Origin: Candidatus Methylomirabilis limnetica
GTDB lineage: Bacteria > Methylomirabilota > Methylomirabilia > Methylomirabilales > Methylomirabilaceae
Reading direction: 5' to 3'
Length of the DNA: 30,002 nt
Assembly (NCBI RefSeq): GCF_003044035.1
Contig: NZ_NVQC01000018.1
Span: 1 to 30,002 of the forward strand
How positions within the stretch are numbered: position 1 is the first letter of the stretch; each line of letters starts with the position of its first letter. A model generated the notes under the pieces. That model did not search any database and had not been told where the DNA came from. It saw nothing but the letters and a program-made list of their open reading frames with translations. Below, piece after piece: positions 1 through 29,679 of the stretch. The translations under genes were made by a program, and so were the position numbers.

Positions 1-120
1 GCTTGCAGGTGACGGCGACGTTCTGCTTGAAGACGCCAGAGGCGGGATCGGCAGCTCGTCGGATCTCGTGAGCGCCATGGCAATCGGTGCAGGTTGCGGC
101 AGTGAGATTGCCTTTCTGTA
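1..120 (-). pseudogene. 5'-truncated c-type (probably multihaem) cytochrome gene fragment that runs off the window start
   Basis: The minus-strand frame reads ..KGNLTAATCTDCHGAHEIRRAADPASGVFKQNVAVTCK. The CTDCH haem-c motif lies at 77-91 and the next Cys at 5-7. The cytochrome-like sequence stops near 120, where DUF4338-like sequence takes over in another frame. No native N-terminus or signal peptide is present. Confidence 0.5.
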
Positions 121-125
121 GGATG

Positions 126-581
126 GCCAAACAGGAGACAGGACAGGGGGCGGTGCGAAGCATCGCGAATCAGGTATTTGATGTTTTCCCCTACAGCGCC
201 ACGGTAACCCAGGTAATGATATTGTGACAAGAGGCAGTTGAACAGCGCATAATCCTCCGATTTGAGGCTTACAACCGTGATCCGAAGGGGAATCAATGCC
301 TTGAGACTGTCGCTGATCCCTTCCTTTCGATATGGAACAGATGGATAAGAAGGACGGGACGTAAAAGTAAGTTTCCCCTGGCGGGGAGGCAACACAATAG
401 AGCCAGCTCGCTCCAGTTTCAGCAGGAGGCTGCGGCAGGCCATGTCTTTGTATTGCCCTGTGGGACTTTGCCAGTTCCACAACCTGCAAATCTCCAAAGA
501 GAGGCGGGTGCGGTGCCAGTCGGGGTTGGCAGTAAGCAGCTGTCGGATTTGCTGGACATTTACGGTCATGGATTGTTCCAT
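126..581 (-). pseudogene. DUF4338-family (DruA-like) gene retaining only the N-terminal ~150 codons
   Basis: The start ATG is at 581-579. The translation is MEQSMTVNVQQIRQLLTANPDWHRTRLSLEICRLWNWQSPTGQYKDMACRSLLLKLERAGSIVLPPRQ...LFNCLLSQYHYLGYRGAVGENIKYLIRDASHRPLSCLLFG. This fits the DUF4338 pattern as I remember it (KDMxCR, YHYLGY, LKYL..RPLxCLxFG). The expected AAWK..RD.FIGW continuation is absent after ~126. This ORF is not in the supplied track because the frame stays open to the window edge. Confidence 0.55.
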
Positions 582-1068: not shown

Positions 1069-1146
1069 GGCGAACAATCGCATTGAGAGCGACGAGGTAT
1101 GGCGCGCAGACGCGCCACACCTCGGGCCTCATGCGTAACGTTATGC
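1069..1146 (+). other. attC-like recombination site 1 (78 bp)
   Basis: Layout: R'' GGCGAAC 1069-1075, 5-nt spacer, L'' CATTGAG 1081-1087, central 13-bp stem GAGGTATGGCGCG/CGCGCCACACCTC (1094-1106 / 1111-1123), L' CTCATG 1128-1133, 6-nt spacer, R' GTTATGC 1140-1146. L'' carries one unpaired T relative to L'. The AAC and GTT triplets are in place. Confidence 0.55.
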
Positions 1147-1804
1147 CTCGTGAGGTCCAGAGATGCCTGAACCATTGACGCCAAGTTCAAGCCTAGTGTC
1201 GGAGTATCTTGACAAGTGGGAACAGCTAGAAAATTACAAACTCCAAGAGGCTTCTTTGGGTCTGCTCTTTCATGGCCTGTGCCCCGAAAACAAACAAATT
1301 GAGCATGTGCTACTGAAGGTCAGCACCCTTAATGACTTTTACAACACCAATATTTTTGACACATATTCGGTAGCCAAGCACATCCTCAAGAAAGATATAG
1401 ATGCTCAGCTCGGGGCAAACGATTATTTCTTGGTAAATGACATTGCGAAGATTTCAATAAAAGGTAAAACAAGAAATTTCTATTCGTTCGCCTCGAAGTA
1501 TTGCAGTCATCACAAACCGAATAACTATCCGATCTTTGACTCATTCATTGAGAAGATGTTGCTGCACTATAAATCAACGGACAGATTCAATGGCTTCAAT
1601 AAAGGTGATCTCAAAAATTACGTACACTTTATCGAGATCATCAAAAGCTTTCAGAGCTTCTACAAGCTGGAGAGCTTTTCTCTGAGGCAAATAGACAATT
1701 TCTTGTGGTTGGCGGGGAAAGAATGGTTCCCGAGAAACTACAAACGAGGCTTAACCAATCGCTCTACGGGACGCGTAACAGCGGCGCGCCCGTGAGCTCA
1801 ACCG
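1141..1804 (+). mobile_element. Integron-type gene cassette (664 bp) bounded by the G|TT points of two attC-like sites
   Basis: A single ORF starts 23 nt after the upstream R' and stops inside the downstream attC. The ORF and both attC sites share one orientation. G+C is about 35-40% (hand count of two lines) against roughly 60% in the surrounding sequence. Confidence 0.5.
1163..1795 (+). CDS. Orphan cassette-borne hypothetical protein (210 aa), AT-rich, no family recognised
   Basis: The ORF is intact with a GAGG motif at 1152-1155, 7 nt upstream of the ATG. It shows strong compositional contrast with its neighbours. The last ~15 codons run through attC-2 and the stop TGA (1793-1795) lies in L'. 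Confidence 0.7.
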   Translation: MPEPLTPSSSLVSEYLDKWEQLENYKLQEASLGLLFHGLCPENKQIEHVLLKVSTLNDFYNTNIFDTYSVAKHILKKDIDAQLGANDYFLVNDIAKISIKGKTRNFYSFASKYCSHHKPNNYPIFDSFIEKMLLHYKSTDRFNGFNKGDLKNYVHFIEIIKSFQSFYKLESFSLRQIDNFLWLAGKEWFPRNYKRGLTNRSTGRVTAARP

Positions 1805-1810
1805 TTCAGC
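1749..1810 (+). other. attC-like recombination site 2 (62 bp)
   Basis: Layout: R'' GCTTAAC 1749-1755 (fits RYYYAAC), spacer CAATC, L'' GCTCTAC 1761-1767, central GGG-a-CGCG / CGCG-CCC stem with a 9-nt loop, L' GTGAGC 1792-1797, spacer TCAACC, R' GTTCAGC 1804-1810. Two unpaired bases (T1765, A1771) lie on the left arm. The 7-5-7...6-6-7 layout matches classical 59-base elements. Confidence 0.65.
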
Positions 1811-2119: not shown

Positions 2120-2191
2120 TGTACCCGTGTATAAGTGACACCATAGCGTCTTGACGTTAAGATGCTATTCTTGCTCATGGAGGTGATGACC

Positions 2192-2425
2192 ATGAGTGAA
2201 CCAGTCAAGCGCTCCACTGTCTACTTCAGTCCGGATCTGCATCGAGCTCTTCGCATAAAGGCTGCCCATACCCAGCGCACGGTGTCCGATCTCGTCAATG
2301 ATGCTGTGCGCATGGCCCTCCGCGAGGATCAAGAAGACTTGGCTGCCTTCGTCGAGCGACAGGCGGAACTCGTGATGACCTACGAGGATCTCTTGAGAGA
2401 CCTGAAGTCTCATGGGAAGATTTAG
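2192..2425 (+). CDS. Type II antitoxin, ribbon-helix-helix (CopG/RelB/ParD-like)
   Basis: The translation is MSEPVKRSTVYFSPDLHRALRIKAAHTQRTVSDLVNDAVRMAL.., a typical RHH N-terminus. GGAGGTG lies at 2179-2185, 6 nt upstream of the ATG. The gene overlaps the toxin gene by 14 nt. Confidence 0.85.
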   Translation: MSEPVKRSTVYFSPDLHRALRIKAAHTQRTVSDLVNDAVRMALREDQEDLAAFVERQAELVMTYEDLLRDLKSHGKI

Positions 2426-2675
2426 CCTGGTCTTCAAGAAATCAGTCGCCAAGGATCTTCAAGGGATTCCGAAGGAGGACGTTTCCCGGCTCCTGAAATG
2501 CTTTGAGGTATTAGCGGAAGATCCACACGGGAAAGGGTGCGAGAAGTTGTCCGGACAGGAGAGGTATCGGCTTCGCCAAGGTTCATACCGTATCGTCTAC
2601 GAGATCCAGGGTGATGTTCTCGTTGTGATCGTTGTTACGGTCGGGCGCCTGCGCGACGTCTACAGGCGCAGGTAA
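2412..2675 (+). CDS. Type II toxin, RelE/ParE family
   Basis: The 87-aa product contains ..YRLRQGSYRIVYEIQGDVLVVIVVTVGRLRDVY, the characteristic RelE/ParE C-terminal pattern. The gene is paired and overlapping with the upstream RHH gene. Confidence 0.85.
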   Translation: MGRFSLVFKKSVAKDLQGIPKEDVSRLLKCFEVLAEDPHGKGCEKLSGQERYRLRQGSYRIVYEIQGDVLVVIVVTVGRLRDVYRRR

Positions 2676-3765: not shown

Positions 3766-3933
3766 GTAACTACTCAGGTGTTTAGGCTGTAGGCTGAGGG
3801 CTGTTAGTCATTGCGCACGGACCGAATCAAGGCGCACTGCGTCGGCCAGTTCAAACGCTCTGAGCTTGGTATGGTCTCGCATGGTGCGTTCCTACAGTCT
3901 AAAAGCCTACAGTCTATCTACCTGAGTAGTTAC
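3766..3933 (+). mobile_element. MITE B1 (168 bp), GTAACTACTCAGGT terminal inverted repeats, 8-bp TSD CGTGAATC
   Basis: The TIRs lie at 3766-3779 and 3920-3933. Identical 8-mers CGTGAATC lie at 3758-3765 and 3934-3941. The internal arms are long and complementary (GGCTGTAGGCT.. / ..AGCCTACAGTC). Confidence 0.9.
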
Positions 3934-3992
3934 CGTGAATCGTCTCAACTCTCGACGGTTAGGCCTGACCAAGTGACAGAGGAGTCGCCCCC

Positions 3993-4994
3993 TTGATAAA
4001 ACTAAGGATCGCTGTACTGTTTCTCGCGGTTGTAGTGATCACAGGGATTGCAGGGTATCGCTTCCTTGAGGGGTATACGTGGTTTGAGGCCTTCTATATG
4101 ACGATCATCACCATCTCAACGGTGGGATTTCAAGAGGTAAGACCCTTGAGCTCGACCGGTAGGCTCTTCACGATCGGGCTCCTCTTTGCCGGCCTGGGGG
4201 TGGTTCTCTATACAGCAGGAACTGTTACCGCAAAAATCGTGGAGGGGGAGTTCCAGCAGTTCTTCGGGAGGAGGAGAATGGAGAAGCAAATCGACGCCCT
4301 GACAAACCACTATCTCGTGTGCGGCTATGGTCGTATCGGGGAGGTGATCTGCCGCGAGTTGGCTTCAAAGCCTGTCCCGTTTGTAGTCATTGAGCTGGAG
4401 GAAGAGCGGGTCCGCAGGGTGGAGGAGGCGGGCCACCTGTTGCTCAAGGGGGATGCCACCGATGAGAAGGTCCTCCTGGTTGCCGGGGTGATAAGGGCCA
4501 AAGGTCTCTTCGCCACCATGCCGGTCGATGCGGACAATGTCTTTATGGTCCTCACGGCCAAGGATCTCAACCCCTCCATCTTTGTAGTAGCCAGGGCCGA
4601 GACGGAGCGTAGCGAAAAGACCCTCGTCCACGCAGGGGCCGATAAGGTTATTTCGCCCTACGCAATGGGGGGACACCGCATGGCTCAGGCGGCCCTCCGC
4701 CCCGCCGTGGTGGACATCATTGAATTGGCCACGCACTATCAAAGCCTGGAACTGCAGCTTGAGGAGATTGTGGTGCCACCGGGGTCTCCCTGCGAGGGGG
4801 TCACGCTGCGTGACTCCGGGCTACGCCAGGAGCCGGGGGTGATTGTGGTAGCGATCAAGCGGGCATTGGGTGGCATGATCTTTAATCCCTCCGCAGATGA
4901 AAAGATTGAGGCCGGGGATAGCCTTGTCGCCCTGGGAGAGGTTGCCCGCCTGAGGTGGTTGGAACGGCGAGTAGAATTGACTTCTTCAACATAA
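3993..4994 (+). CDS. 2-TM potassium-channel-like protein with RCK (TrkA-N + TrkA-C) domains
   Basis: The start is TTG with GAGGAG 8 nt upstream. There are two hydrophobic helices flanking a pore loop, TIITISTVGFQEV. The Rossmann motif is LVCGYGRIGEV and a C-terminal TrkA-C-like segment follows. Confidence 0.85.
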   Translation: MIKLRIAVLFLAVVVITGIAGYRFLEGYTWFEAFYMTIITISTVGFQEVRPLSSTGRLFTIGLLFAGLGVVLYTAGTVTAKIVEGEFQQFFGRRRMEKQIDALTNHYLVCGYGRIGEVICRELASKPVPFVVIELEEERVRRVEEAGHLLLKGDATDEKVLLVAGVIRAKGLFATMPVDADNVFMVLTAKDLNPSIFVVARAETERSEKTLVHAGADKVISPYAMGGHRMAQAALRPAVVDIIELATHYQSLELQLEEIVVPPGSPCEGVTLRDSGLRQEPGVIVVAIKRALGGMIFNPSADEKIEAGDSLVALGEVARLRWLERRVELTSST

Positions 4995-7692: not shown

Positions 7693-8670
7693 GTGATTGC
7701 CGAGACGATTCTCTCTCCTGTTACTTCTGAACTCGCCCTGGTCGAGGAGCGGCTGCTCCAGGACATAGGCGGCGATGTAGAGTTGATCTCCGAGATTATC
7801 CGGTATGTGCTCAAGAGCGGCGGTAAACGGGTCCGACCTGCGCTGCTGCTGCTTTCGGCAAAGCTCTGCGGCTATTGTGGCGGCTCTCGTAACATTGAGC
7901 TTGCGGTGGCGGCAGAGTATATGCACGCTGCCACGCTTATCCATGATGATATCATCGATCGTGCCGACAAGCGCCGCGGACTCCCGTCGGCGAATAATGC
8001 CTGGGGTCCTCAGATCTCCGTGCTGGCCGGCGATTTCCTCTATGCCAGATCGATTCAGATCCTGGTGACAGATGGTGACTTGGCTGTCTTACAGACCTTT
8101 GCCGACGCGACGGTTCGGATGATTGAGGGTCAGGTGCGCGAGGTTCAGATGGCCGGAAACCTCGACCTCACTTATAACGAGTATCTGAACATCATGACGT
8201 TAAAGACCGCTGCCCTGATCTCAGCCGCTTGCAGGACTGGCGCCCTGATCGCCGATAGACCAGCGGAGGATGTGGCTGCGTTAACCGAGTTCGGCTTGAA
8301 TGTGGGGATCGGGTTCCAGTTGGTCGATGACGCGCTGGATTTTGTCGCCGAGGAGTACCGGCTGGGTAAGCCGGTAGGGAACGATTTCAAAGAGGGAAAG
8401 ATGACGTTTCCGGTGCTCCATGTGATGCGGACAGGCTCGGAGGCCGATAAGGGCAGGATCAGAGAGTTGGTCGCGCAGGAGACCATCGGAGAGTCTGATC
8501 TGGCAGAGGTAAAGGCGATAATGGAACGGTATGGCGCCGTTGCGGCCACGATGGAGCTCGTTCGCAACTACCTCAAGAAAGCCAAGGCATCCCTTGGTAG
8601 CTTTCCGGATTCGGACGCCAAACGTTCGCTTGTCCTGATGGTCGATTTTATAGGAGATCGAGACTGGTGA
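7693..8670 (+). CDS. Long-chain trans-polyprenyl diphosphate synthase (IspB/HepT-like)
   Basis: Both Asp-rich motifs are present: LIHDDIIDRADKRRG and GFQLVDDALDF. The start is GTG with GGAGG at 7681-7685. Confidence 0.9.
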   Translation: MIAETILSPVTSELALVEERLLQDIGGDVELISEIIRYVLKSGGKRVRPALLLLSAKLCGYCGGSRNIELAVAAEYMHAATLIHDDIIDRADKRRGLPSANNAWGPQISVLAGDFLYARSIQILVTDGDLAVLQTFADATVRMIEGQVREVQMAGNLDLTYNEYLNIMTLKTAALISAACRTGALIADRPAEDVAALTEFGLNVGIGFQLVDDALDFVAEEYRLGKPVGNDFKEGKMTFPVLHVMRTGSEADKGRIRELVAQETIGESDLAEVKAIMERYGAVAATMELVRNYLKKAKASLGSFPDSDAKRSLVLMVDFIGDRDW

Positions 8671-8784: not shown

Positions 8785-10593
8785 ATGGCGACCAACCTGC
8801 AACAGATTCGTAACTTCTCCATCATTGCGCACATCGATCATGGAAAGTCAACCCTGGCCGACCGGATCCTGGAGGCCACTGGGGCGCTGCAGCCACGTGA
8901 GATGGAGGCCCAGGTCCTGGATCATATGGATCTAGAGCGGGAACGGGGTATTACCATCAAGGCGAAGGCCGTTCGCCTCCACTACAAGCGGCAGGGCGAG
9001 CAAGAGTATATCCTGAACCTGATCGACACTCCCGGCCATGTGGACTTTTGCTACGAGGTTTCGAGAAGCCTCTCCGCGTGTGAGGGCGCGCTGCTCGTGA
9101 TCGATGCCGTCCAGGGGGTGGAGGCGCAGACGCTCGCCAATGTCCATCTCGCCATGGAACATGACCTGACCATCATCCCGGTTATTAACAAGATTGATCT
9201 GCCGAATGCCGATGTTGCCCGGGTAAAGATGCAGATAGAGGAGACCCTGGCCATCGATGCCTCCGAGGCGATCCTGTGCAGCGCCAAACAGGGGATCGGC
9301 ACTGAGGAGGTGATCGAAGCGGTCATCAAGCGGATCCCGCCTCCCAAAGGATCCCCGGACGCTCCTCTGAAAGCGCTGATTTTTGACTCTTCATTCGATC
9401 CGTACCAAGGCGTGGTCATGTATGTCCGGCTGTACGATGGGCAGGTGCGCCACGGGACGAGGATACTCCTGATGTCCACCGGTGTTGCGTTCGAGGTGTT
9501 ACAGGTCGGCGTCTTCACCCCTCAGATGCGCCCGGCAGATCTCCTGTCAGCCGGAGAGGTAGGGTACATCATTGCCGGTATCAGGGATGTGCGTCACACC
9601 AGGGTAGGGGATACCATTACTGCCGTAGACAGACCTACAACCACGGCCCTGCCTGGCTTCAAAGAGGTCCGGCCTATGGTGTTTGCCGGTCTGTACCCGA
9701 CCGAGAGCGAACAGTACCAGGAAATGAAGGAGGCATTGGAGAAGCTTCGCCTCAACGATTTTTCCTTTAGTTTTGAGCCGGAGACCTCGCTCGCCCTCGG
9801 CTTTGGTTTCCGGTGTGGTTTCCTTGGCTTGCTCCACATGGAGATCATCCAGGAGCGACTGGAGCGCGAGTTCGACCTGACGCTGATTACTACCGCTCCG
9901 ACGGTAGTATACCGAGTGGTCAAGAGAGACGGAACCGTTGTTGAGGTGGATAACCCCAGTGACCTTCCTCTTACGCAGCAGATCGAACGGGTTGAGGAGC
10001 CATACATCAAGGCCTCCATCATGGCGCCTGGTGAGTATATTGGGCCAATCTTTGGGCTCTGTCAGGAGAAGCGTGGGATTCAACGCGGCGTCGAGTACAT
10101 GGAAGGTGGTCGAATCCTCATTACCTACGACCTCCCGCTCAATGAGATCGTCATGGATTTCTACGACCGGCTGAAGTCTGCCACCCGCGGCTACGCCTCC
10201 CTGGACTATGAATTTCTCGATTATCGGGAGGGCCAGTTGGCGAAGCTGGATATCCTGGTTAACGATGAGCCGGTTGACGCACTTTCTTGCATCGTCCCGA
10301 AGGAGCAGGCACACCTGAGGGGCCGGATGCTGGCGGAACGGATGAGGGAGCTGATCCCGAGGCAGCTCTTCGAGGTGGTAATTCAGGCTGCGCTTGGCGG
10401 CAAGGTCATCGCGCGGGAGACCGTGCGTCCCCTGCGTAAAAATGTGACGGCCAAATGCTATGGCGGGGACATCAGCCGCAAGCGAAAGCTGCTTGAGCGC
10501 CAGAAGGAGGGGAAACGCCGGATGAAGCAGGTGGGCAGGGTCGAGATTCCACAGGAGGCCTTCATGGCGGCGCTGAAGGTGAAAAGCCCATGA
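8785..10593 (+). CDS. lepA: Translation elongation factor 4 (LepA)
   Basis: [28 protein letters not shown] and NKID motifs are present, along with the LepA-specific C-terminal domain. The product is 602 aa. Confidence 0.97.
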
Positions 10594-11228
10594 CGCGGCA
10601 GACGATGGATGAGACGACAAAGAAGGATCAGGAGCCCACTTCGCAGCCAGGCGCGAAACCGGAGAAGTCGGTCATTCGGCAATATTCCGAGGCCGTCATC
10701 ATTGCCATTATCCTGGCGCTGGTGATCAGAAGTTTTATAATCCAAGCCTTCAAAATCCCCTCTGGATCGATGCTCCAGACGCTGCAGATCGGCGATCACA
10801 TCATGGTCAATAAGTTCCTGTATTGGTTTACCGATACGCAGCATGGGGACATTATCGTGTTCAAGTATCCCCAGGATGAGGAGAGAGACTTCATTAAGCG
10901 AGCGGTCGCCCTGCCAGGTGATAAGATGGAGATACGGGGAAAACAGGTCTACATCAACGATAAGCCTATCGCTGAGCCGTACGCGGTTCACCTGGATCCT
11001 GACATCATCGAGAAATCGAGTTCGCCTCGGGACAATTTCGGTCCGGTCGTGGTTGCGCCGGGTCAACTCTTCATGATGGGCGATAACCGGGACTACAGCA
11101 TGGATAGCAGATTCTGGGGCTTTCTTGACATGAAGAAGATCAAGGGGAAAGCTTTTATTATCTACTGGTCGTGGGATCACGAGCGCTTCAGGCCCCGCTG
11201 GGAGCGAATCGGGATGTTAGTCCGATGA
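10590..11228 (+). CDS. lepB: Signal peptidase I
   Basis: The IPSGSM (Ser nucleophile), KR and [14 protein letters not shown] boxes are present. An ATGA overlap couples it to lepA. Confidence 0.95.
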
Positions 11229-12439
11229 AGGCAGTTTCGAGTTTCAAGTTTCGAGTTTCGAGTTCTAACTCTGCCATAGACCCGAAACCCGAAACCAGAA
11301 ACCCGAAACCCTTCGGTTTATACATCCATATCCCCTATTGCCTGTCACGCTGTCATTACTGCGATTTCAACACCTATCGTCTTGATGACGCTCACGTACA
11401 GCAGTATCTGGATGGGCTTGCGCAAGAGATAACGCTCCGCGCCTCCGCTATGGCGATCCGAGACCGGCGGGTCTGTTCCGTCTTCTTTGGCGGCGGGACG
11501 CCCTCAATACTGCAGGCATCGCAACTCATCGGCATCCTCGACCACTGTCGAGCCGCCTTCACCTTCGAGGATGGCGTAGAGGTCAGCCTCGAGGCCAACC
11601 CCGGGACGGTGGACCTTCCGAAGCTTCGTACGCTGTGGGAGGGCGGGGTGACCCGTCTGAGTGTAGGGGTTCAAGCTGTTCAGGACCGACTCCTCCAGCG
11701 GATCGGTCGTGCTCATGCTGCCTGCGAGGCTAAACGGGCTTTCTGGCTGATGCGTGAGGCCGGCTTCAGCAACATTAACCTGGACTTAATGTTCGGCCTG
11801 CCCGGTCAGAGTATCGGTGACTGGTCGGAGACCCTTGACTGGGCCATCAGCGTGGGTCCTGAACATGTCTCTCCCTACGGGCTGATCCTTGAAGAGGGGA
11901 CACCTCTGCACCAGGAGCATCGCCAAGGGGAGATTGGGCTACCCGACGAAGAGGCGGAGGCAGTGATGTACGGGATGGCCGTGGACCGGCTGCTTGACGC
12001 CGGCTTTGAGCATTACGAAATCTCAAACTTTGCGCGTCCCGGCTTCCGTTGTCGCCACAATCTGGTTTACTGGCACCACCAGGAATACCTCGGCATGGGG
12101 GCGGGAGCTCACTCATTCCTTGCCGGGCGCCGGTTTTATAACGAGTTACTGCCTGCAAGCTACGTGCGCGCCATTAGCGAGCGTGGGACAGCCGTAGCCG
12201 GCGACGAAGAGCTTTCCGCTGAGATGCTGCGATCTGAGCGTCTAATGTTGGGGCTTCGGCTCCGGGCCGGACTGGACGTGCAGGTATTCAAGGACGTACT
12301 TAGCATTGAAGATCTCTCTGCGTCTGATCGAGTTACCCGTCTCCTGGATGATGGGTTTCTTCGCGTGAAGGAGGGGCGGGTGCAGATCACAGAGCGAGGG
12401 CTCCTCGTGGCCAATGAACTGATTGTCCAGCTCCTCTGA
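11225..12439 (+). CDS. hemW: Radical-SAM haem chaperone HemW (HemN-like), with a repeat-derived N-terminus
   Basis: YIHIPYCLSRCHYCDFN is the CxxxCxxC radical-SAM motif, and a HemN C-terminal domain follows. The start at ATG 11225 forms an ATGA overlap with the lepB stop. Codons 4-29 are encoded by the heptad hairpin element. Confidence 0.9.
   Translation: MKAVSSFKFRVSSSNSAIDPKPETRNPKPFGLYIHIPYCLSRCHYCDFNTYRLDDAHVQQYLDGLAQEITLRASAMAIRDRRVCSVFFGGGTPSILQASQLIGILDHCRAAFTFEDGVEVSLEANPGTVDLPKLRTLWEGGVTRLSVGVQAVQDRLLQRIGRAHAACEAKRAFWLMREAGFSNINLDLMFGLPGQSIGDWSETLDWAISVGPEHVSPYGLILEEGTPLHQEHRQGEIGLPDEEAEAVMYGMAVDRLLDAGFEHYEISNFARPGFRCRHNLVYWHHQEYLGMGAGAHSFLAGRRFYNELLPASYVRAISERGTAVAGDEELSAEMLRSERLMLGLRLRAGLDVQVFKDVLSIEDLSASDRVTRLLDDGFLRVKEGRVQITERGLLVANELIVQLL
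11231..11313 (+). repeat. Heptad hairpin element copy H-A
   Basis: The left arm is GTTTCGA GTTTCAA GTTTCGA GTTTCGA GTTC (11234-11265). A 13-nt loop follows. The right arm is GA CCCGAAA CCCGAAA CCAGAAA CCCGAAA CCC (11279-11311). Confidence 0.9.
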
Positions 12440-12442
12440 TTC

Positions 12443-12623
12443 GTAACTATAAGGTGTTTAGGCTGAAGGCTGAAGGCTGTTAGTCGTTGCGCATGGACCG
12501 AATCAAGGCGCCCAGATTTATCTTGGTCTCCATCATGTTCGCGTCGCATTCAGAAAACGCCTGGCTCATCCGTACGCGTTCCTACAGTCTAACAGCCTAC
12601 AGTCTATCTGCCTGAGTAGCTAC
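12443..12623 (+). mobile_element. MITE B2 (181 bp), degenerate TIRs, 8-bp TSD TCTGATTC
   Basis: The ends are GTAACTATAAGGT.. and ..CCTGAGTAGCTAC. TCTGATTC lies at 12435-12442, where it contains the hemW stop codon, and again at 12624-12631. Its centre resembles B1. Confidence 0.85.
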
Positions 12624-12659
12624 TCTGATTCTCTAGCGTACGACCGATGGCAAATCCGC

Positions 12660-13872: not shown

Positions 13873-14027
13873 GTAACTACAAGGTGTTTAGACTGAAGAC
13901 TGAAGGTTCTAAATTATCTCGCAAGGCACGAATCGAGTCATTCAAGACCTTTTCGGAGTTTTGTATGATCACGCATGGCTTACTCCTAAAAGCCTTCAGC
14001 CTTCAGTCTATCTACCTGAGTAGTTAC
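13873..14027 (+). mobile_element. MITE B3 (155 bp), TSD (T/C)ACCGATG
   Basis: The ends are GTAACTACAAGGT.. and ..CCTGAGTAGTTAC. ACCGATG lies at 13866-13872 and 14029-14035. It is about 90% identical to B4. It lies between hrcA and grpE. Confidence 0.85.
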
Positions 14028-14058
14028 CACCGATGAACGAAAGGGAACCGATCAGATA

Positions 14059-14700
14059 ATGGATCAAGAAAACGAAGAAGCCAAAGCGCCGACAAGCGAT
14101 AACGTCCAGGAGAGCCCTGTCGCCCCCACGACCGAGCTAGAGTTGACGATCGACAAGCTACAGGCCGTTCTCAAGGAAAAGATTGCTGAGGTAGAGTCGC
14201 TCAACGACCGCCTCCTTCGCCTGCAGGCGGAGTTTGAGAACTACAAGAAGCGAGCGGCCCGCGAGCGGGGCGAGTTCGTGAGGTTCGCGAACGAAGGACT
14301 ACTTTTAGAGCTGCTGCCTGTGGGGGACAGTCTGGAGCATGCTGCTGCCACGACCAGGTCTGGAGCAGACGCTCAAGGCGTTGCCGAAGGCCTCGATGTC
14401 ATTCGGCGGCTTTTTCAGGCAACATTGGAGAAGGTAGCGGTGAAGGCCATCGAGGCGTTGGGGCATGAGTTCGATCCGAACTTCCATCAGGCTGTGATTC
14501 AGGTAGAGTCGACTGATGGACTGGACAACATCGTGGTCGAAGAGGTCCGAAAGGGGTACCTCCTGGAAGGACGTTTGCTGCGGCCGGCGATGGTAAAGGT
14601 ATCGAAGGGAGCAGTTCCGAGTTCCGAGTTCCGAGTTTCGAGTGTCGATGAGGATGAACCCGAAACCCGGAGCCCGGAATCCGGCATATATGAGCCATGA
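14059..14700 (+). CDS. grpE: Nucleotide exchange factor GrpE with a repeat-derived C-terminal tail
   Basis: A coiled-coil N-terminus, LRLQAEFENYKKR and ..GYLLEGRLLRPAMVKVSKG (where GrpE usually ends) are present. A further 29 aa, AVPSSEFRVSSVDEDEPETRSPESGIYEP, is encoded by heptad element H-B. Confidence 0.93.
   Translation: MDQENEEAKAPTSDNVQESPVAPTTELELTIDKLQAVLKEKIAEVESLNDRLLRLQAEFENYKKRAARERGEFVRFANEGLLLELLPVGDSLEHAAATTRSGADAQGVAEGLDVIRRLFQATLEKVAVKAIEALGHEFDPNFHQAVIQVESTDGLDNIVVEEVRKGYLLEGRLLRPAMVKVSKGAVPSSEFRVSSVDEDEPETRSPESGIYEP
14611..14686 (+). repeat. Heptad hairpin element copy H-B
   Basis: The left arm is GTTCCGA x3, GTTTCGA, GTGTCG (14614-14647). The right arm is GAAC CCGAAAC CCGGAGC CCGGAAT CCGGC (14656-14685). 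Confidence 0.85.
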
Positions 14701-18688: not shown

Positions 18689-18866
18689 CGAGCAACACCC
18701 CATGCAGCCCCAGCCGCACCACGGCGTACGAAAAGGCAGCTCCACCCCCCATCCTTACCTTTCCCCCCGGATCGAGTCCGGGGCAGGCTCTCATGGGGTG
18801 AAGGGGCACCTCACGCGGACTCCTCCCCCCTCGGAGGGGGAGGATACAGGTGGGGGGGGTGCTCGC
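18688..18866. repeat. GC-tract palindromic composite repeat filling the polA-coaE spacer
   Basis: The outer inverted repeats are GCGAGCAACACCCC (18688-18701) and GGGGTGCTCGC (18856-18866). Inner hairpins are CCCCGGA-tcgag-TCCGGGG and CCTCCCCC..GGGGGAGG. It shares the 16-mer GTCCGGGGCAGGCTCT with 2961-2976. Confidence 0.65.
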
Positions 18867-19818: not shown

Positions 19819-19974
19819 GTAACTACTCAGGTGTTTAGACTGAAGACCGAAGGTTCTAAATTATCTCGCAAAGCACGAGTCGAGCCATTCAAGATCTTTT
19901 CGGAGTTTTGTATAATCACGCATGACTTACCCCTAAAAGCCTTCAGCCTTTAGCCTATCTACCTGAGTAGTTAC
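19819..19974 (+). mobile_element. MITE B4 (156 bp), perfect 14-bp TIRs, 8-bp TSD TTCACGCG
   Basis: GTAACTACTCAGGT (19819-19832) pairs with ACCTGAGTAGTTAC (19961-19974). TTCACGCG lies at 19811-19818 and 19975-19982. It sits in the rho 5' leader. Confidence 0.9.
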
Positions 19975-20086
19975 TTCACGCGCATCATACCTCAGATCGG
20001 TCACACGGAGAGGCGGGTTATTTGGTTGAGATCGCGAAGTAGATTCATCGTTAACAGGCTTACTTAAGGAAGAGGAGTTCGCGTAG

Positions 20087-22950: not shown

Positions 22951-23970
22951 ATGGCGGGTACGCTTGCAGAAGAAGTGCGAAGCGCGGGGTCCGAGGTGCG
23001 GAAGCAGCCCACCCCGCACGTCTTCACATATCGCCGCGTGGTGGAACGGTTGGTGGATAGTGGCGTGGAAAGCGCGTTGCTCGACGCGGCGTGCCTCATT
23101 GAGGCCGCATCAGGAATCCCACGGTGGCGGTTCATACTGGACCCGGAGCAATCGATCCCCTCGGACAAATCTTGCCTCCTTGAATCGATGGTATCACGGC
23201 GCGAGGCCAGAGAGCCAATTGCCTATATCCTCGGAGTGAAAGAGTTTTGGTCTCTTCCCCTTACGGTGGGTTACGACGTCCTGATCCCGAGGCCGGAAAC
23301 CGAAACGCTTGTCGAGGCCGTCCTCGAGAAGATCGGTTTCGAGTTTCGAGTTTCGAGTTTCGAGTTTGCTCGTGATAGTTCGAGGTTGACTGCTGGTTCT
23401 GTAAACCCGAAACCCGAAACCCGCAACTCGAAACTTGTTATCGTGGACCTTGGCACCGGTAGCGGCGCGATTGCCTTGGCGCTTGCTGTCGAGATGCCCC
23501 ACGCGCTTGTTTACGCCATCGATCGTTCGCCTGGCGCTTGCAGGATTGCCAGGCGGAACATAGAGGCGCTGGGGTTGACGAGCAGGGTTCACTGCGTACA
23601 GGGCGATCTGCTTGATCCGCTTCGGACGATTGACGCTGGAGGAGGGTGCGACCTGATCGTTTCAAATCCTCCGTACATCCCTTCCGGAGCATGCGGCTCC
23701 CTGTCTCCTGAGATCGTCGCCTACGAGCCTCTTGAGGCCTTAGATGGCGGTCCTGACGGTCTCCGCTATCATCGGCGAATCATCGAAGAGGCTCCCGCCT
23801 ATCTTCGCGAAGGAGGCTGGCTATTCCTCGAGGTCGGCGACGGTCAGGCACCAGCCGTGATGGAACTGATCCGGAAGACAGAAGGCTTCGGACCAGCCGG
23901 GGTGAGGCAGGACGTAGCGGGTCGTGACCGAGTCGTCTTTGCGCCACGGCGAGGGAGGGCGCTTGGATAA
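22951..23970 (+). CDS. prmC: Release-factor glutamine N5-methyltransferase PrmC/HemK carrying an internal repeat insertion
   Basis: [39 protein letters not shown] and NPPY (SNPPYIP) are present. An alternative start is GTG 22945. About 34 aa between [15 protein letters not shown] and IVDLGTGSG derive from heptad element H-C. Confidence 0.92.
23335..23436 (+). repeat. Heptad hairpin element copy H-C (inside prmC)
   Basis: The left arm is GGTTTCGA (GTTTCGA)x3 GTTTG (23335-23368). A ~34-nt loop follows. The right arm is AAC CCGAAAC CCGAAAC CCGCAAC TCGAAAC (23403-23434). Confidence 0.9.
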
Positions 23971-25219
23971 ACTGATTATCAGAGGTGGGGCGCCCCTCAG
24001 AGGACAGGTAGAGGTTAGTGGCGCCAAGAACGCGGCCCTGCCGGCAATGGTGGCGTCTTTACTCACAGAGGAGTCGATCCGGCTTCATCGTATTCCGCAA
24101 CTGGGCGACGTGAGGACGATTATCGGTCTGCTCAACCATTTAGGCGTGAGCGTCGAAGGACGTGATCGAGAGCCCATATCCCTTCGTGCTGATCGCATCG
24201 ATCGGTTTGAGGCTCCCTACCAACTGGTCAAGACGATGCGGGCATCGGTGCTGGTGCTTGGCCCGCTGCTGGCCCGTTTCGGCCGGGCACGGGTCTCTTT
24301 GCCAGGAGGGTGCGCGATAGGGACGAGGCCGATCAATCTGCATCTCGCAGCCCTTGAGAAGATGGGTGCAACGGTCAGCTTGGATGCCGGGTACGTAGAG
24401 GCCAAGGCGCCACGCTTGAAGGGTGCCAGGATCACATTTGATGGCCAGACCGTTACCGGCACCGAGAATCTGATGATGGCCGCCACCCTGGCGGATGGGG
24501 TTACGGTATTGGAAAACGCCGCGTGCGAGCCCGAGGTCACTGACCTGGCCGCCCTGCTGAATCGCATGGGGGCGAGAATCGAAGGCGCTGGTACTCCGAC
24601 GATCAGCATCGAGGGTACCTCACATCTGCACGGGGCAGAGCACGAGGTGATCCCGGACAGGGTCGAGACCGGGACCTTTATGGTTGCGGCTGCGATTACC
24701 GGTGGTGATGTGACCATCAATCGCTGCCTGCCGTATCACCTGGAAGCAGTCACGGAGAAACTGCGGGAGACAGGCGTGCGCGTGGAGGAGACGGACTGTA
24801 GTATTCGGGTCGTGGGAGATGGGCACGTGAGAGGAGTCAATATCAGGACCCACCCCTATCCCGGGTTCGCCACCGATATGCAAGCGCAAATGACGGCTCT
24901 CATGTCTATTGCCCAGGGGAGCAGCGTCATCACCGAAACAGTTTTTGAAAACCGATTTATGCACGTGAATGAGCTGCTGAGGATGGGTGCGGACATCAAG
25001 GTGGTTGGTACTACCGCGTTCGTCCACGGAGTTCCCACGCTGTCGGGCGCGCCAGTGATGGCCACCGACCTGCGGGCGAGCGCATCGCTGGTTCTGGCGG
25101 GACTGGCCGCTCAGGGGATTACGACTATCTCGCGTGTCTACCATCTGGACCGGGGATACGAGTCGATTGAGCAGAAGCTCCTCGGCCTCGGCGCCAGCAT
25201 CGAGCGAGTCGCAGAATAA
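23963..25219 (+). CDS. murA: UDP-N-acetylglucosamine 1-carboxyvinyltransferase
   Basis: (M)[26 protein letters not shown] is the canonical MurA N-terminus, and the active-site loop [12 protein letters not shown] is present. The start is TTG 23963 with GAGGGAGGG 4 nt upstream, giving 418 aa. The track start GTG 23924 is less likely. Confidence 0.93.
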
Positions 25220-25225
25220 AGGAGA

Positions 25226-25306
25226 GTTTCGGGTTTTGAGTCCCGAGTTTCGAGTTGGGACCAGAAACCCGAAACCCGAAACGCGAAACATGGAACATGG
25301 AACCCA
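25226..25306 (+). repeat. Heptad hairpin element copy H-D (murA-hisG spacer)
   Basis: The left arm is GTTTCGG GTTTTGA GTCCCGA GTTTCGA GTT (25226-25256). The right arm is AGAAACC CGAAACC CGAAACG CGAAACA TGGAACA TGGAACC (25263-25304). The hisG ATG lies in the last degenerate heptads. Confidence 0.85.
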
Positions 25307-25974
25307 CAAATAACGACGTGATCGCGATCGCGCTGCCGAAGGGTCGGTTGCTGACCCCTATCCTTGAACTCTTTGAGGGGATCGGTTTTCCGTGCGTGAA
25401 GGTCTTTTCTGACTCACGGCGCTTGATCTACGAGGATCGCGATCGGCAACTCCGATTCCTCATACTCCGGCCTGCCGACATCCCGACCTATGTGGAGCGC
25501 GGGGCCGCCGACATGGGTATCGCGGGGAAAGACCAGCTTCTCGAGCAGCGCCGGGATGTCTATGAGCCGCTGGATCTCAGGTTCGGTGCATGTCGACTTG
25601 TCGTGGCCGAGCCGGCTGAACTCCATAAGCAGGATGATCCTCATTCCTGGTCGAACCTGAGGGTGGCCACCAAATATCCAAACCTTGCGGAAGCGTACTT
25701 CAGTCGTAAAGGGATCCAGGCGGAGATCATCAAGCTGACCGGTTCTCTTGAACTTGCGCCCCTTGTAGGGCTGGCCGAGCGGATCATTGATCTCGTAGAA
25801 ACCGGGCAGACCTTGAAGGAGAACGGGTTGGTGGAGGTTGAGGAGATCGTCAAGTCCACGGCGCGGCTCATTGTCAATCGCGCGAGCCTCAAGACGAAGT
25901 ACCGCAGGGTCCAGGATCTAGTCGAGAAGATGCGAGCGCAGGTCGAAGCGCATACGGCAGGGGCGCGTGCATGA
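25297..25974 (+). CDS. hisG: ATP phosphoribosyltransferase, short (HisZ-dependent) form
   Basis: The translation is MEPTNNDVIAIALPKGRLL..ILRPADIPTYVERGAADMGIAGKD... The start is ATG 25297, with no clear SD. TTG 25255 is an in-frame alternative that would translate the element's right arm as GPETRNPKRET. Confidence 0.9.
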   Translation: MEPTNNDVIAIALPKGRLLTPILELFEGIGFPCVKVFSDSRRLIYEDRDRQLRFLILRPADIPTYVERGAADMGIAGKDQLLEQRRDVYEPLDLRFGACRLVVAEPAELHKQDDPHSWSNLRVATKYPNLAEAYFSRKGIQAEIIKLTGSLELAPLVGLAERIIDLVETGQTLKENGLVEVEEIVKSTARLIVNRASLKTKYRRVQDLVEKMRAQVEAHTAGARA

Positions 25975-28344: not shown

Positions 28345-28395
28345 AAATTCCTTCACCCCCCCCTTTACGAAAGGGGGGCACGGGGGGATTTGAGG
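28345..28395. repeat. C/G-tract palindromic element copy F1 (hisC-hisB spacer)
   Basis: The sequence is ..CACCCCCCCC TTT ACG AAA GGGGGG CAC GGGGGG ATTT. It has a 9-bp perfect inner stem (CCCCCCTTT/AAAGGGGGG) with a 3-nt loop. Its core matches the reverse complement of 29371-29405. Confidence 0.8.
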
Positions 28396-29038: not shown

Positions 29039-29679
29039 TTGCCATCATCGATTCCGGCGTCGCGAACCTCCGAAGCGTCCAGAAGGGGTTCGAGTGCGTT
29101 GAGGCTGATGCCAGGATCGTGGAGGATCCTCTGACGCTTCGGGACGCATCCGGTATTGTTCTCCCTGGGGTGGGCGCGTTTGCCGATGGGATCAGTAAGC
29201 TTCGGGATGGTGGATTTGTCGAGCCGCTGCTTCGGGCGATTGAGGAGGGTAAGCCGGTCCTGGGTATCTGCTTGGGACTGCACTTCCTGTTCAGTGAGAG
29301 CGAGGAGTTCGGGCATCATGCGGGCCTCAACGTCATCAAGGGCCGAGTCGTCCGATTTACCAATAATCTCCCCGTGCCCCCCTTTCGTAAAGGGGGGGTG
29401 GGGGGATTTCTCAAAATCCCGCACATGGGGTGGAACCGGATCAGAATCGAGCAGCAGGCCCCGATCTTCAAGGGCATTCCCGACGGGGGGTTCTTCTACT
29501 TCGTCCACTCCTACTATGTGCAACCAGAGGATGAAAGCGTGATCGCCGCCACGACCGAGTACGGCCCCCGATTCACCTCAGTGTTGTGGCGAGACAACCT
29601 CTTTGCCTGCCAGTTTCACCCCGAAAAGAGCCAAGCGCTAGGTTTGCAACTATTGAAGAACTTCGCCTCCCTCACGTAG
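29035..29679 (+). CDS. hisH: Imidazole glycerol phosphate synthase, glutaminase subunit HisH, with an internal repeat insertion
   Basis: (V)IAIIDSGVANL, GICLGLHFLF (catalytic Cys), PHMGWN and FHPEKS are present. A GTGA overlap couples it to hisB. About 15 extra residues (NLPVPPFRKGGVGGF) before PHMGWN are encoded by repeat F2. Confidence 0.93.
   Translation: MIAIIDSGVANLRSVQKGFECVEADARIVEDPLTLRDASGIVLPGVGAFADGISKLRDGGFVEPLLRAIEEGKPVLGICLGLHFLFSESEEFGHHAGLNVIKGRVVRFTNNLPVPPFRKGGVGGFLKIPHMGWNRIRIEQQAPIFKGIPDGGFFYFVHSYYVQPEDESVIAATTEYGPRFTSVLWRDNLFACQFHPEKSQALGLQLLKNFASLT
29366..29418. repeat. C/G-tract palindromic element copy F2 (inside hisH)
   Basis: The sequence is AATCTCCCCGTG CCCCCC TTT CGT AAA GGGGGGG TG GGGGGG ATTT. 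It is a near-perfect palindrome and the reverse complement of the F1 core. Confidence 0.8.

Follow-up and report, generated by a model that had tools for sequence, protein, structure and literature searches.

The attC sites of class 1 integrons, the 59-base elements of which the aadA attC is an example, share one layout: an R'' box, a 5-nt spacer, a 7-nt L'' box, a central interval, a 6-nt L' box, a 6-nt spacer and an R' box, with AAC and GTT cores in the outer boxes and a single extrahelical base in L''. Attention has also been drawn to attC sites that stand apart from any integrase. Cury et al. (2016, PMC4889954) with IntegronFinder, and later its version 2 (10.1101/2022.02.28.482270), gave the name CALIN to a cluster of attC sites lacking integron-integrase. 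A complete environmental chromosomal integron is found at the locus L007 (GCA_040960175.1, JBFOMP010000456.1), which has a divergent IntI scoring 369.8 bits on TIGR02249 (cut-off 265) and, beyond an apparent insertion point (GTTATGT near 9503), five cassettes whose attCs are canonical. In this study we describe a 664-bp gene cassette (1141 to 1804, forward strand), lying between two attC sites at 1069 to 1146 and 1749 to 1810, in Candidatus Methylomirabilis limnetica (GCF_003044035.1, contig NZ_NVQC01000018.1). The positions are those of the analysed stretch of 30,002 nucleotides, which is called the window throughout and appears to be a complete contig. The data suggest that the cassette is very probably a genuine integron gene cassette and that the two sites are genuine attC sites.

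This locus shares with the class 1 59-base elements the layout, the cores and the single extrahelical base in L'', but its likeness in sequence is confined to the cores. Its R' boxes deviate from GTTRRRY, its cargo is not a resistance gene, and its setting is chromosomal, in an uncultured methanotroph. The integron L007 holds, in second place, an 82% homologue of the cassette, and the two loci share this orthologous cassette (82% in protein, 81% in DNA), its GTTATGC start at the 5' end, the attC architecture and a divergent L box that covaries. They differ in that an IntI is present in L007, whereas around the window copy neither IntI nor attI nor a cassette promoter (Pc) is in view; the window copy has also lost its stop codon, carries one substitution in R'' and has T instead of C as the bulged base. 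The resemblance to a CALIN lies in two co-oriented attCs, a fragment without intI, a cassette open reading frame (ORF) of unknown function and nearby elements resembling insertion sequences (IS) or miniature inverted-repeat transposable elements (MITEs). Compared with CALINs in general the window is at the minimum size, with two attCs against an average of about five to six, and its place at a contig edge makes the class provisional. NC10/Methylomirabilota is also not mentioned in the integron literature searched.

Site 1 (1069 to 1146, forward strand) reads GGCGAAC-AATCG-CATTGAG, then a variable stem of 40 nt (1088 to 1127), then CTCATG-CGTAAC-GTTATGC; its R'' lies at 1069 to 1075, L'' at 1081 to 1087, L' at 1128 to 1133 and R' at 1140 to 1146. 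Site 2 (1749 to 1810, forward strand), the cassette's own attC, reads GCTTAAC-CAATC-GCTCTAC, then a stem of 24 nt (1768 to 1791), then GTGAGC-TCAACC-GTTCAGC, with R'' at 1749 to 1755, L'' at 1761 to 1767, L' at 1792 to 1797 and R' at 1804 to 1810. A preliminary description of this DNA had proposed this layout for both sites, together with L''/L' pairing interrupted by one bulged T in each L'' box, and both proposals agree with the sequence, the layout base for base. The inverted cores are present at both sites, as R'' ends with AAC and R' starts with GTT. Spacers of 5/6 (or 5/5) also occur in 37 integrase-adjacent sites (alignment A4). The R' boxes GTTATGC and GTTCAGC and the R'' box GGCGAAC, which the same description had flagged as deviant, fall inside the variation of integrase-adjacent arrays, and the bottom-strand folding that it had recommended gave imperfect hairpins with an extrahelical base at both sites (z = -5.45 for site 1 and -2.16 for site 2 against shuffles). 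Rfam at gathering thresholds gave no match in the window. Measured against a sedentary chromosomal integron, which has many cassettes with closely similar attCs that are kept throughout a species or genus, the picture is mixed: the two sites are dissimilar beyond the attC architecture and are the only two in the contig, and of the relatives M. oxyfera has attCs at the orthologous locus but L174 and L177 have none.

Site 1 is the 3' recombination site of a preceding cassette, which is truncated or lacks an ORF. The G^TT position known from established integron biology would place the crossover points at G1140/T1141 in site 1 and at G1804/T1805 in site 2. By the same established biology, the bottom strand of the attC on a cassette circle would fold into an imperfect hairpin in which the R boxes and the L boxes are paired and some bases are extrahelical. 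IntI would then cut R' between G and TT and join it to attI or to another attC, which would leave the junctions that are observed: at 1140/1141 the sequence reads ...G^TTATGC..., and at 1804/1805 it reads ...G^TTCAGC.

The cassette thus delimited begins with TTATGC and contains an RBS-like (ribosome-binding-site-like) GAGG, one ORF and its own attC through the G of R'. The ORF (1163 to 1795, forward strand) encodes 210 aa of the family PF27257 (HI_0787_N), and its product is 100% identical to an M. limnetica hypothetical protein (locus tag CLG94_06350). It starts 23 nt past the first R', as earlier stated, when counted from the G of that box (16 nt from the end of the box), and it ends, again as stated, inside the second attC, with its TGA at 1793 to 1795 within L' of site 2. 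No promoter-like site was found between site 1 and the ATG, in keeping with the claim of a single promoterless ORF co-oriented with both sites. The 664 bp had also been called AT-rich, and the cassette has 43.2% GC against 58.1% in the remaining contig; the ORF up to its ancestral stop codon has 40.5%. Such a foreign base composition would support the cassette reading.

The comparison with homologous cassettes bears directly on the boundaries. In blastn searches the cassette matched the loci L004 with 87.8% identity (cassette nt 1 to 662), L005 with 82.2% (nt 1 to 664) and L007 with 81.3% (nt 1 to 655). In the alignment to three metagenomic copies the homology runs from GTTATGC (T1141) through ...TCAACCG (about G1804), and the flanks are unrelated. 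The homology therefore breaks at the G^TT points, which match the crossovers that define a cassette. In the homologues, the 5' GTTATGC recurs as its exact reverse complement in R'' (GCATAAC), irrespective of the R' that follows, and this complementarity is what circularisation of the cassette would predict; in the window copy, six of the seven positions match. An IntI adjoins the homologue not only in L007 but also in L104, a metagenome-assembled genome (MAG) of Zetaproteobacteria in which the homologue is the first cassette, and in L122, a Pseudomonadales MAG. Unrelated neighbours surround it in L004, L005, L092 to L102, L114 and L117. Found in differing arrays and positions, the cassette appears to be mobile.

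An attC abuts the ORF in at least 13 of the homologues. Over 41 attCs, the helix formed by the L boxes and the stem is paired at 97.6%, with compensatory changes in 8 of 9 pairs, as when GCTC.AC/GTGAGC in the window corresponds to CTTC.AC/GTGAAG in L007. Covariation is scored at 0.488, whereas shuffles give 0.156 and none of 500 reaches the observed value; the score collapses once the partners are slid. The AAC/GTT pairs are 95–100% conserved in the same set. The outer R-box pairs are paired in only about half, as would be expected with the greater part of R' coming from the cassette next to it. We regard this comparative evidence as stronger than the covariance scores.

The geometry alone was insufficient, and a surrogate attC covariance model was therefore built. 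The training sites, all of them beside IntI genes, came from 80 metagenomic loci encoding integron integrases and were harvested on the array strand, where 44 matches were found against 8 on the opposite strand. The model R1 was made from 37 aligned and trimmed sites, leaving out both window sites and any homologue, and R2 was retrained on 40 full-length sites found by R1; the E-values of both are rough because the calibration was shortened. R1 showed good strand specificity, with 40 sites on 45 integrase loci, 40/40 on the array strand, at 25.6–45.6 bits. In the window its sole match with E < 1 was site 2 (31.9 bits, E 1.7e-5). With the filters off, R2 gave site 2 at 1749 to 1810 with 45.2 bits (E 2.3e-9) and site 1 at 1069 to 1146 with 25.1 bits (E 2.5e-4), both on the forward strand, and the next best match in the 30 kb reached 9.3 bits; bona fide attCs range from 25 to 55 bits. 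In loci with relatives of the ORF, 818 kb in total, R2 made 44 matches, and every one of them was co-oriented with the ORF. The covariance-model check put forward in the preliminary description thus recovered, with a surrogate model, both sites at exactly the coordinates and strand first given.

Several points weigh against these assignments. Four matches to the strict pattern (AAC-N5-L''7...L'6-N6-GTT, the bulged L pairing being perfect) are present in the window where 0.85 would be expected, and two or more turn up in 20% of shuffles, which leaves the geometry on its own non-discriminating. The scores come from surrogate models, not from the attc_4.cm of IntegronFinder. Site 1 was undetected by R1, is a marginal scorer with R2 and is lost with the default filters; moreover, no homologue of it, nor of the preceding 50 bp, was found among the loci compared. 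At both sites the bulged base is a top-strand T, which corresponds to A on the bottom strand. Integrase-adjacent sites typically have C or G at this place on the top strand, and T is in the minority among them (5 of 40, with C in 18, G in 15 and A in 2). This T appears unusual yet compatible with attC membership. Finally, about 1 kb separates the cassette from the end of the contig, and the absence of intI covers this 30-kb contig, not the genome.

As to the kind of array, a tblastn search with IntI at E <= 10 revealed no tyrosine recombinase in the window, which bears out the earlier remark that no integrase is in view. An intI with attI and Pc at the head of an array, the hallmark of a complete integron, was not found in this contig. 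What was found corresponds to a CALIN, namely two attCs 603 bp apart (less than 4 kb) on the same strand of a contig without intI. The preliminary description had offered either a CALIN or an array whose integrase lies outside the window, and a two-attC cluster without intI at a contig edge suits both, the two alternatives being inseparable here. On balance we lean towards the former, that is, a decaying remnant array without integrase in a variable hotspot upstream of the block that runs from a toxin-antitoxin (TA) pair through DJ-1/PfpI and trkA to lepA and hrcA.

The state of the window copy counts toward this remnant reading. Compared with most homologues, R'' of site 2 has changed from GCATAAC to GCTTAAC, and the bulged base of its L'' is T where most homologues have C. 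The ancestral stop (codon 195, 1745 to 1747) is CGA in the window, as in L004 and L005, and is TGA or TAG just before GCATAAC in most homologues, which gives them 194 aa. Translation therefore continues for 16 aa into the attC. In the AlphaFold model, residues 193 to 210 have a predicted local distance difference test (pLDDT) value below 50, and the attC-encoded 16-residue tail is predicted to be disordered. The MITE-like elements and the DruA-like ORF that break up the surroundings also speak for a remnant.

A second species points the same way. M. oxyfera and three other Methylomirabilis/NC10 assemblies share the conserved gene block DJ-1-trkA-SHOCT-PAP2-PMT-polyprenyl synthase-lepA-lepB-hemN-hrcA-grpE, and the region upstream of it varies. 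In the complete genome of M. oxyfera (L172, FP565575 1938289–1958876, reversed), this upstream region spans about 7.5 kb and is made up of small co-oriented genes, among them two TA pairs, PIN/PhdYeFM and Gp49/HTH. It holds one strong attC at L172 7173 to 7271 (R2, 40.9 bits) and two degenerate ones at 7846 to 7939 (23.1 bits, with ATT for GTT) and 4344 to 4427 (19.9 bits, with ATC for AAC and GAT for GTT), all on the forward strand, and no IntI or IntI remnant was found within 10 kb of the locus. Degenerate attCs without IntI at the orthologous locus would argue for a remnant in M. limnetica as well.

It is possible, if unlikely, that the same cassette and attCs are instead the distal end of a complete and perhaps active chromosomal integron, with intI, attI and Pc on another contig. 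The array is about 1 kb from the end of its contig, and the cassettes are directed away from its left end, the orientation that an intI on the left would lead one to expect. Going left from site 1, a stub of 51 bp comes first, then a MITE-like element of 287 bp, then 150 bp of unique sequence and last a DruA/DUF4338-like ORF (3 to 581, reverse strand; weak match to PF14236, 30.3 bits) which runs off the left contig end and marks the point where the array passes from view. Two independent assemblies of the same organism (L001 and L002) begin at window position 707, and this break suggests repeated or variable DNA. According to the IntegronFinder 2 paper (10.1101/2022.02.28.482270), integrons become split in draft assemblies, which gives rise to spurious CALINs. 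Against such a split stands the orthologous array in the complete genome of M. oxyfera, without integrase or remnant within the distance given above and with two of three attCs degenerate. The DruA-like ORF and the MITE-like element, lying between the array and the contig end, argue against it too. A weak piece of evidence in the same direction is that the best 120 relatives of an environmental IntI included none from Methylomirabilis.

Improbable in our view is a third possibility, that the cassettes were inserted at a secondary genomic site by a trans-acting IntI, for example from a transient plasmid, and never belonged to a resident integron. This is one of the CALIN origins listed by Cury et al. 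(PMC4889954), and another report (10.1101/2022.09.11.507474) describes IntI as able to insert cassettes outside att sites in bacterial genomes. The relatives L174 and L177 have no attC at the orthologous locus, which would suit such an insertion. The upstream junction, however, is an attC (site 1) and not a bare GTT target, and therefore at least two consecutive cassettes are present. The attCs at the same locus in a second species also fit inheritance or a hotspot better than a one-off event.

The cassette is bracketed by two MITE-like copies, and it could be supposed that these co-oriented copies and the interval between them form a composite mobile unit in which the attC-like hairpins are incidental. 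Copy 1 (731 to 1017), with the terminal inverted repeats GGGACAGACACTATT, lies inside the preceding cassette and ends 51 bp upstream of site 1; copy 2 (1838 to 2119) starts 27 bp downstream of site 2. The 84% identity of the two copies and their nearness to the attCs are in favour of a composite unit. Nevertheless, we consider it very improbable: the homology of the ORF region elsewhere stops at the attC crossovers and not at the MITE ends, and the MITE is absent from the other cassette-bearing loci compared (L004 to L171). In the NC10 relative L176 a truncated orthologous copy 2 is continuous with the conserved flank of TA pair and DJ-1, and therefore an independent insertion of the MITE is indicated; L177 has no copy. 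Hardly credible is the last alternative, chance or unrelated hairpins such as repetitive extragenic palindromic (REP)-like repeats or terminators mimicking the attC geometry, which could appeal to the excess of strict-geometry matches, to their frequency in shuffles and to a contig rich in palindromic repeat families, since the covariance scores set both sites apart from the whole contig, neither site belongs to a repeat family of the window or has a terminator-like T run, and site 2 is orthologous to, and covaries with, attCs of complete integrons, so that for site 2 this idea is already refuted.

The MITE-like element deserves a remark of its own. Copy 1 also shares 87% identity with an M. 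oxyfera copy (L172, about 4025–4325), and the copies cease to be homologous precisely where the repeats end. The DNA seen from M. limnetica and M. oxyfera, about 50 kb together, holds three independent copies of this 285-bp element; all of them lie about 20–51 bp from an attC and have unrelated flanks, two being upstream of an attC and one downstream. It might be that the GGGACAGACACTATT element inserts preferentially beside folded attC hairpins and is a new attC-associated parasite of integron arrays, a conjecture that we think rather improbable. Like IS1111-attC and the group IIC-attC introns, these copies are associated with attCs. Those elements insert inside the attC, whereas the MITE-like copies are found next to it, on one side or the other. 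Neither transposase nor intron features were identified in the MITE-like element. An ORF inside it (784 to 960, 58 aa) was considered as the N-terminus of a Y1 (IS200-like) transposase and set aside, as the resemblance had no profile support.

On the right, copy 2 of the MITE-like element is followed by a pair of genes for a ribbon-helix-helix antitoxin and a ParE toxin (2162 to 2675, forward strand, by Pfam), and then by DJ-1/PfpI. This TA pair is context outside the array. It has its own promoter-like site (2135 to 2163) and the palindrome TCTTGACGTTAAGA (2149 to 2162), and it is kept next to DJ-1/PfpI, without attC, in the NC10 relatives L176 and L177. In M. oxyfera the Gp49/HTH pair takes the position held by the ribbon-helix-helix/ParE pair in the window. 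The palindrome TCTTGACGTTAAGA was considered as a collapsed R''/R' remnant, an idea that was rejected, as it is conserved upstream of the antitoxin gene in L176 (as TCTTGACGTCAAGA) and in L177; it is more likely an operator, to judge from its sequence and position. A third attC after the ParE toxin (2671 to 2716, GGTAAC-CCGCG-CGGCAGA...TTGCCG-GGC-GTTCAGC) was rejected as well: its L'-R' spacer is just 3 nt, R2 gave no match there at E <= 10, and the TA pair stands beside DJ-1 in L176 and L177 with no attC. The geometric matches at 3850 to 3964 and 8521 to 8630 failed the covariance model and were not accepted as attCs; sites 1 and 2 are alone both in scoring and in falling on the homology breakpoints.

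Other repeats are frequent in the window. A second palindromic MITE-like family of about 150–170 bp, with the ends GTAACTACTCAGGTG...CACCTGAGTAGTTAC, is intergenic at 3766 to 3934, 12452 to 12624, 13882 to 14028 and 19829 to 19975. Heptamer tracts of the type (AGTTTCG)n/(CGAAACC)n form long inverted repeats at 11222 to 11326, 14602 to 14690, 23324 to 23437 and 25214 to 25320. C-rich/G-rich repeats (CCCCCC...GGGGGG palindromes) were seen at 2929 to 2991, 18745 to 18859 and 28346 to 28390, the last with 29365 to 29409, and one repeat of this kind sits between the TA pair and DJ-1/PfpI.

With respect to the cargo, a search of the local Pfam copy, NCBIfam, PADLOC and PDB sequences gave no match. 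The best Foldseek match to the AlphaFold2 model (E = 0.2, template modelling score about 0.3) was to HhH-GPD-like enzymes (Qng1/DUF2419, AGOG/OGG1), and this predicted fold resemblance may be taken as a weak lead. The ORF family has more than 3000 relatives, many of them 194 aa long, and many are 80–88% identical and come from unrelated phyla. Forms of HI_0787_N of about 310 aa with an extra domain also occur. The family is present at 51–58% identity in Firmicutes (Streptococcus, Ligilactobacillus and Clostridia; L118, L121, L125, L127, L129, L136, L148 and L155 to L160). In the five Firmicutes loci scanned with R2 (L136, L148, L155, L157 and L158) no attC was found, and therefore the HI_0787_N gene is not exclusively cassette-borne.

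The element described here is of a well-known kind, and the general understanding of integrons is unchanged by it. The preliminary description had called integron cassettes little documented in this kind of lineage. For Methylomirabilis itself this holds, as no paper on integrons in the genus was found; the broader sense of the remark is not carried by our search. The sole link in the literature concerns M. oxyfera, for which a group IIC-attC intron that lies outside any array has been listed (PMC3001079). With our finding, the range of attC-bounded cassettes comes to include Methylomirabilis (NC10), a genus of nitrite-dependent methane oxidisers that are known only from enrichments and metagenomes. 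The same cassette occurs at 72–88% whole-cassette DNA identity across Verrucomicrobia, Planctomycetes, Nitrospirae, Delta- and Zetaproteobacteria and NC10, which is direct evidence of cross-phylum cassette traffic. The attCs upstream of the same gene block in M. limnetica and M. oxyfera mark a hotspot that is usable for following the decay of an array.

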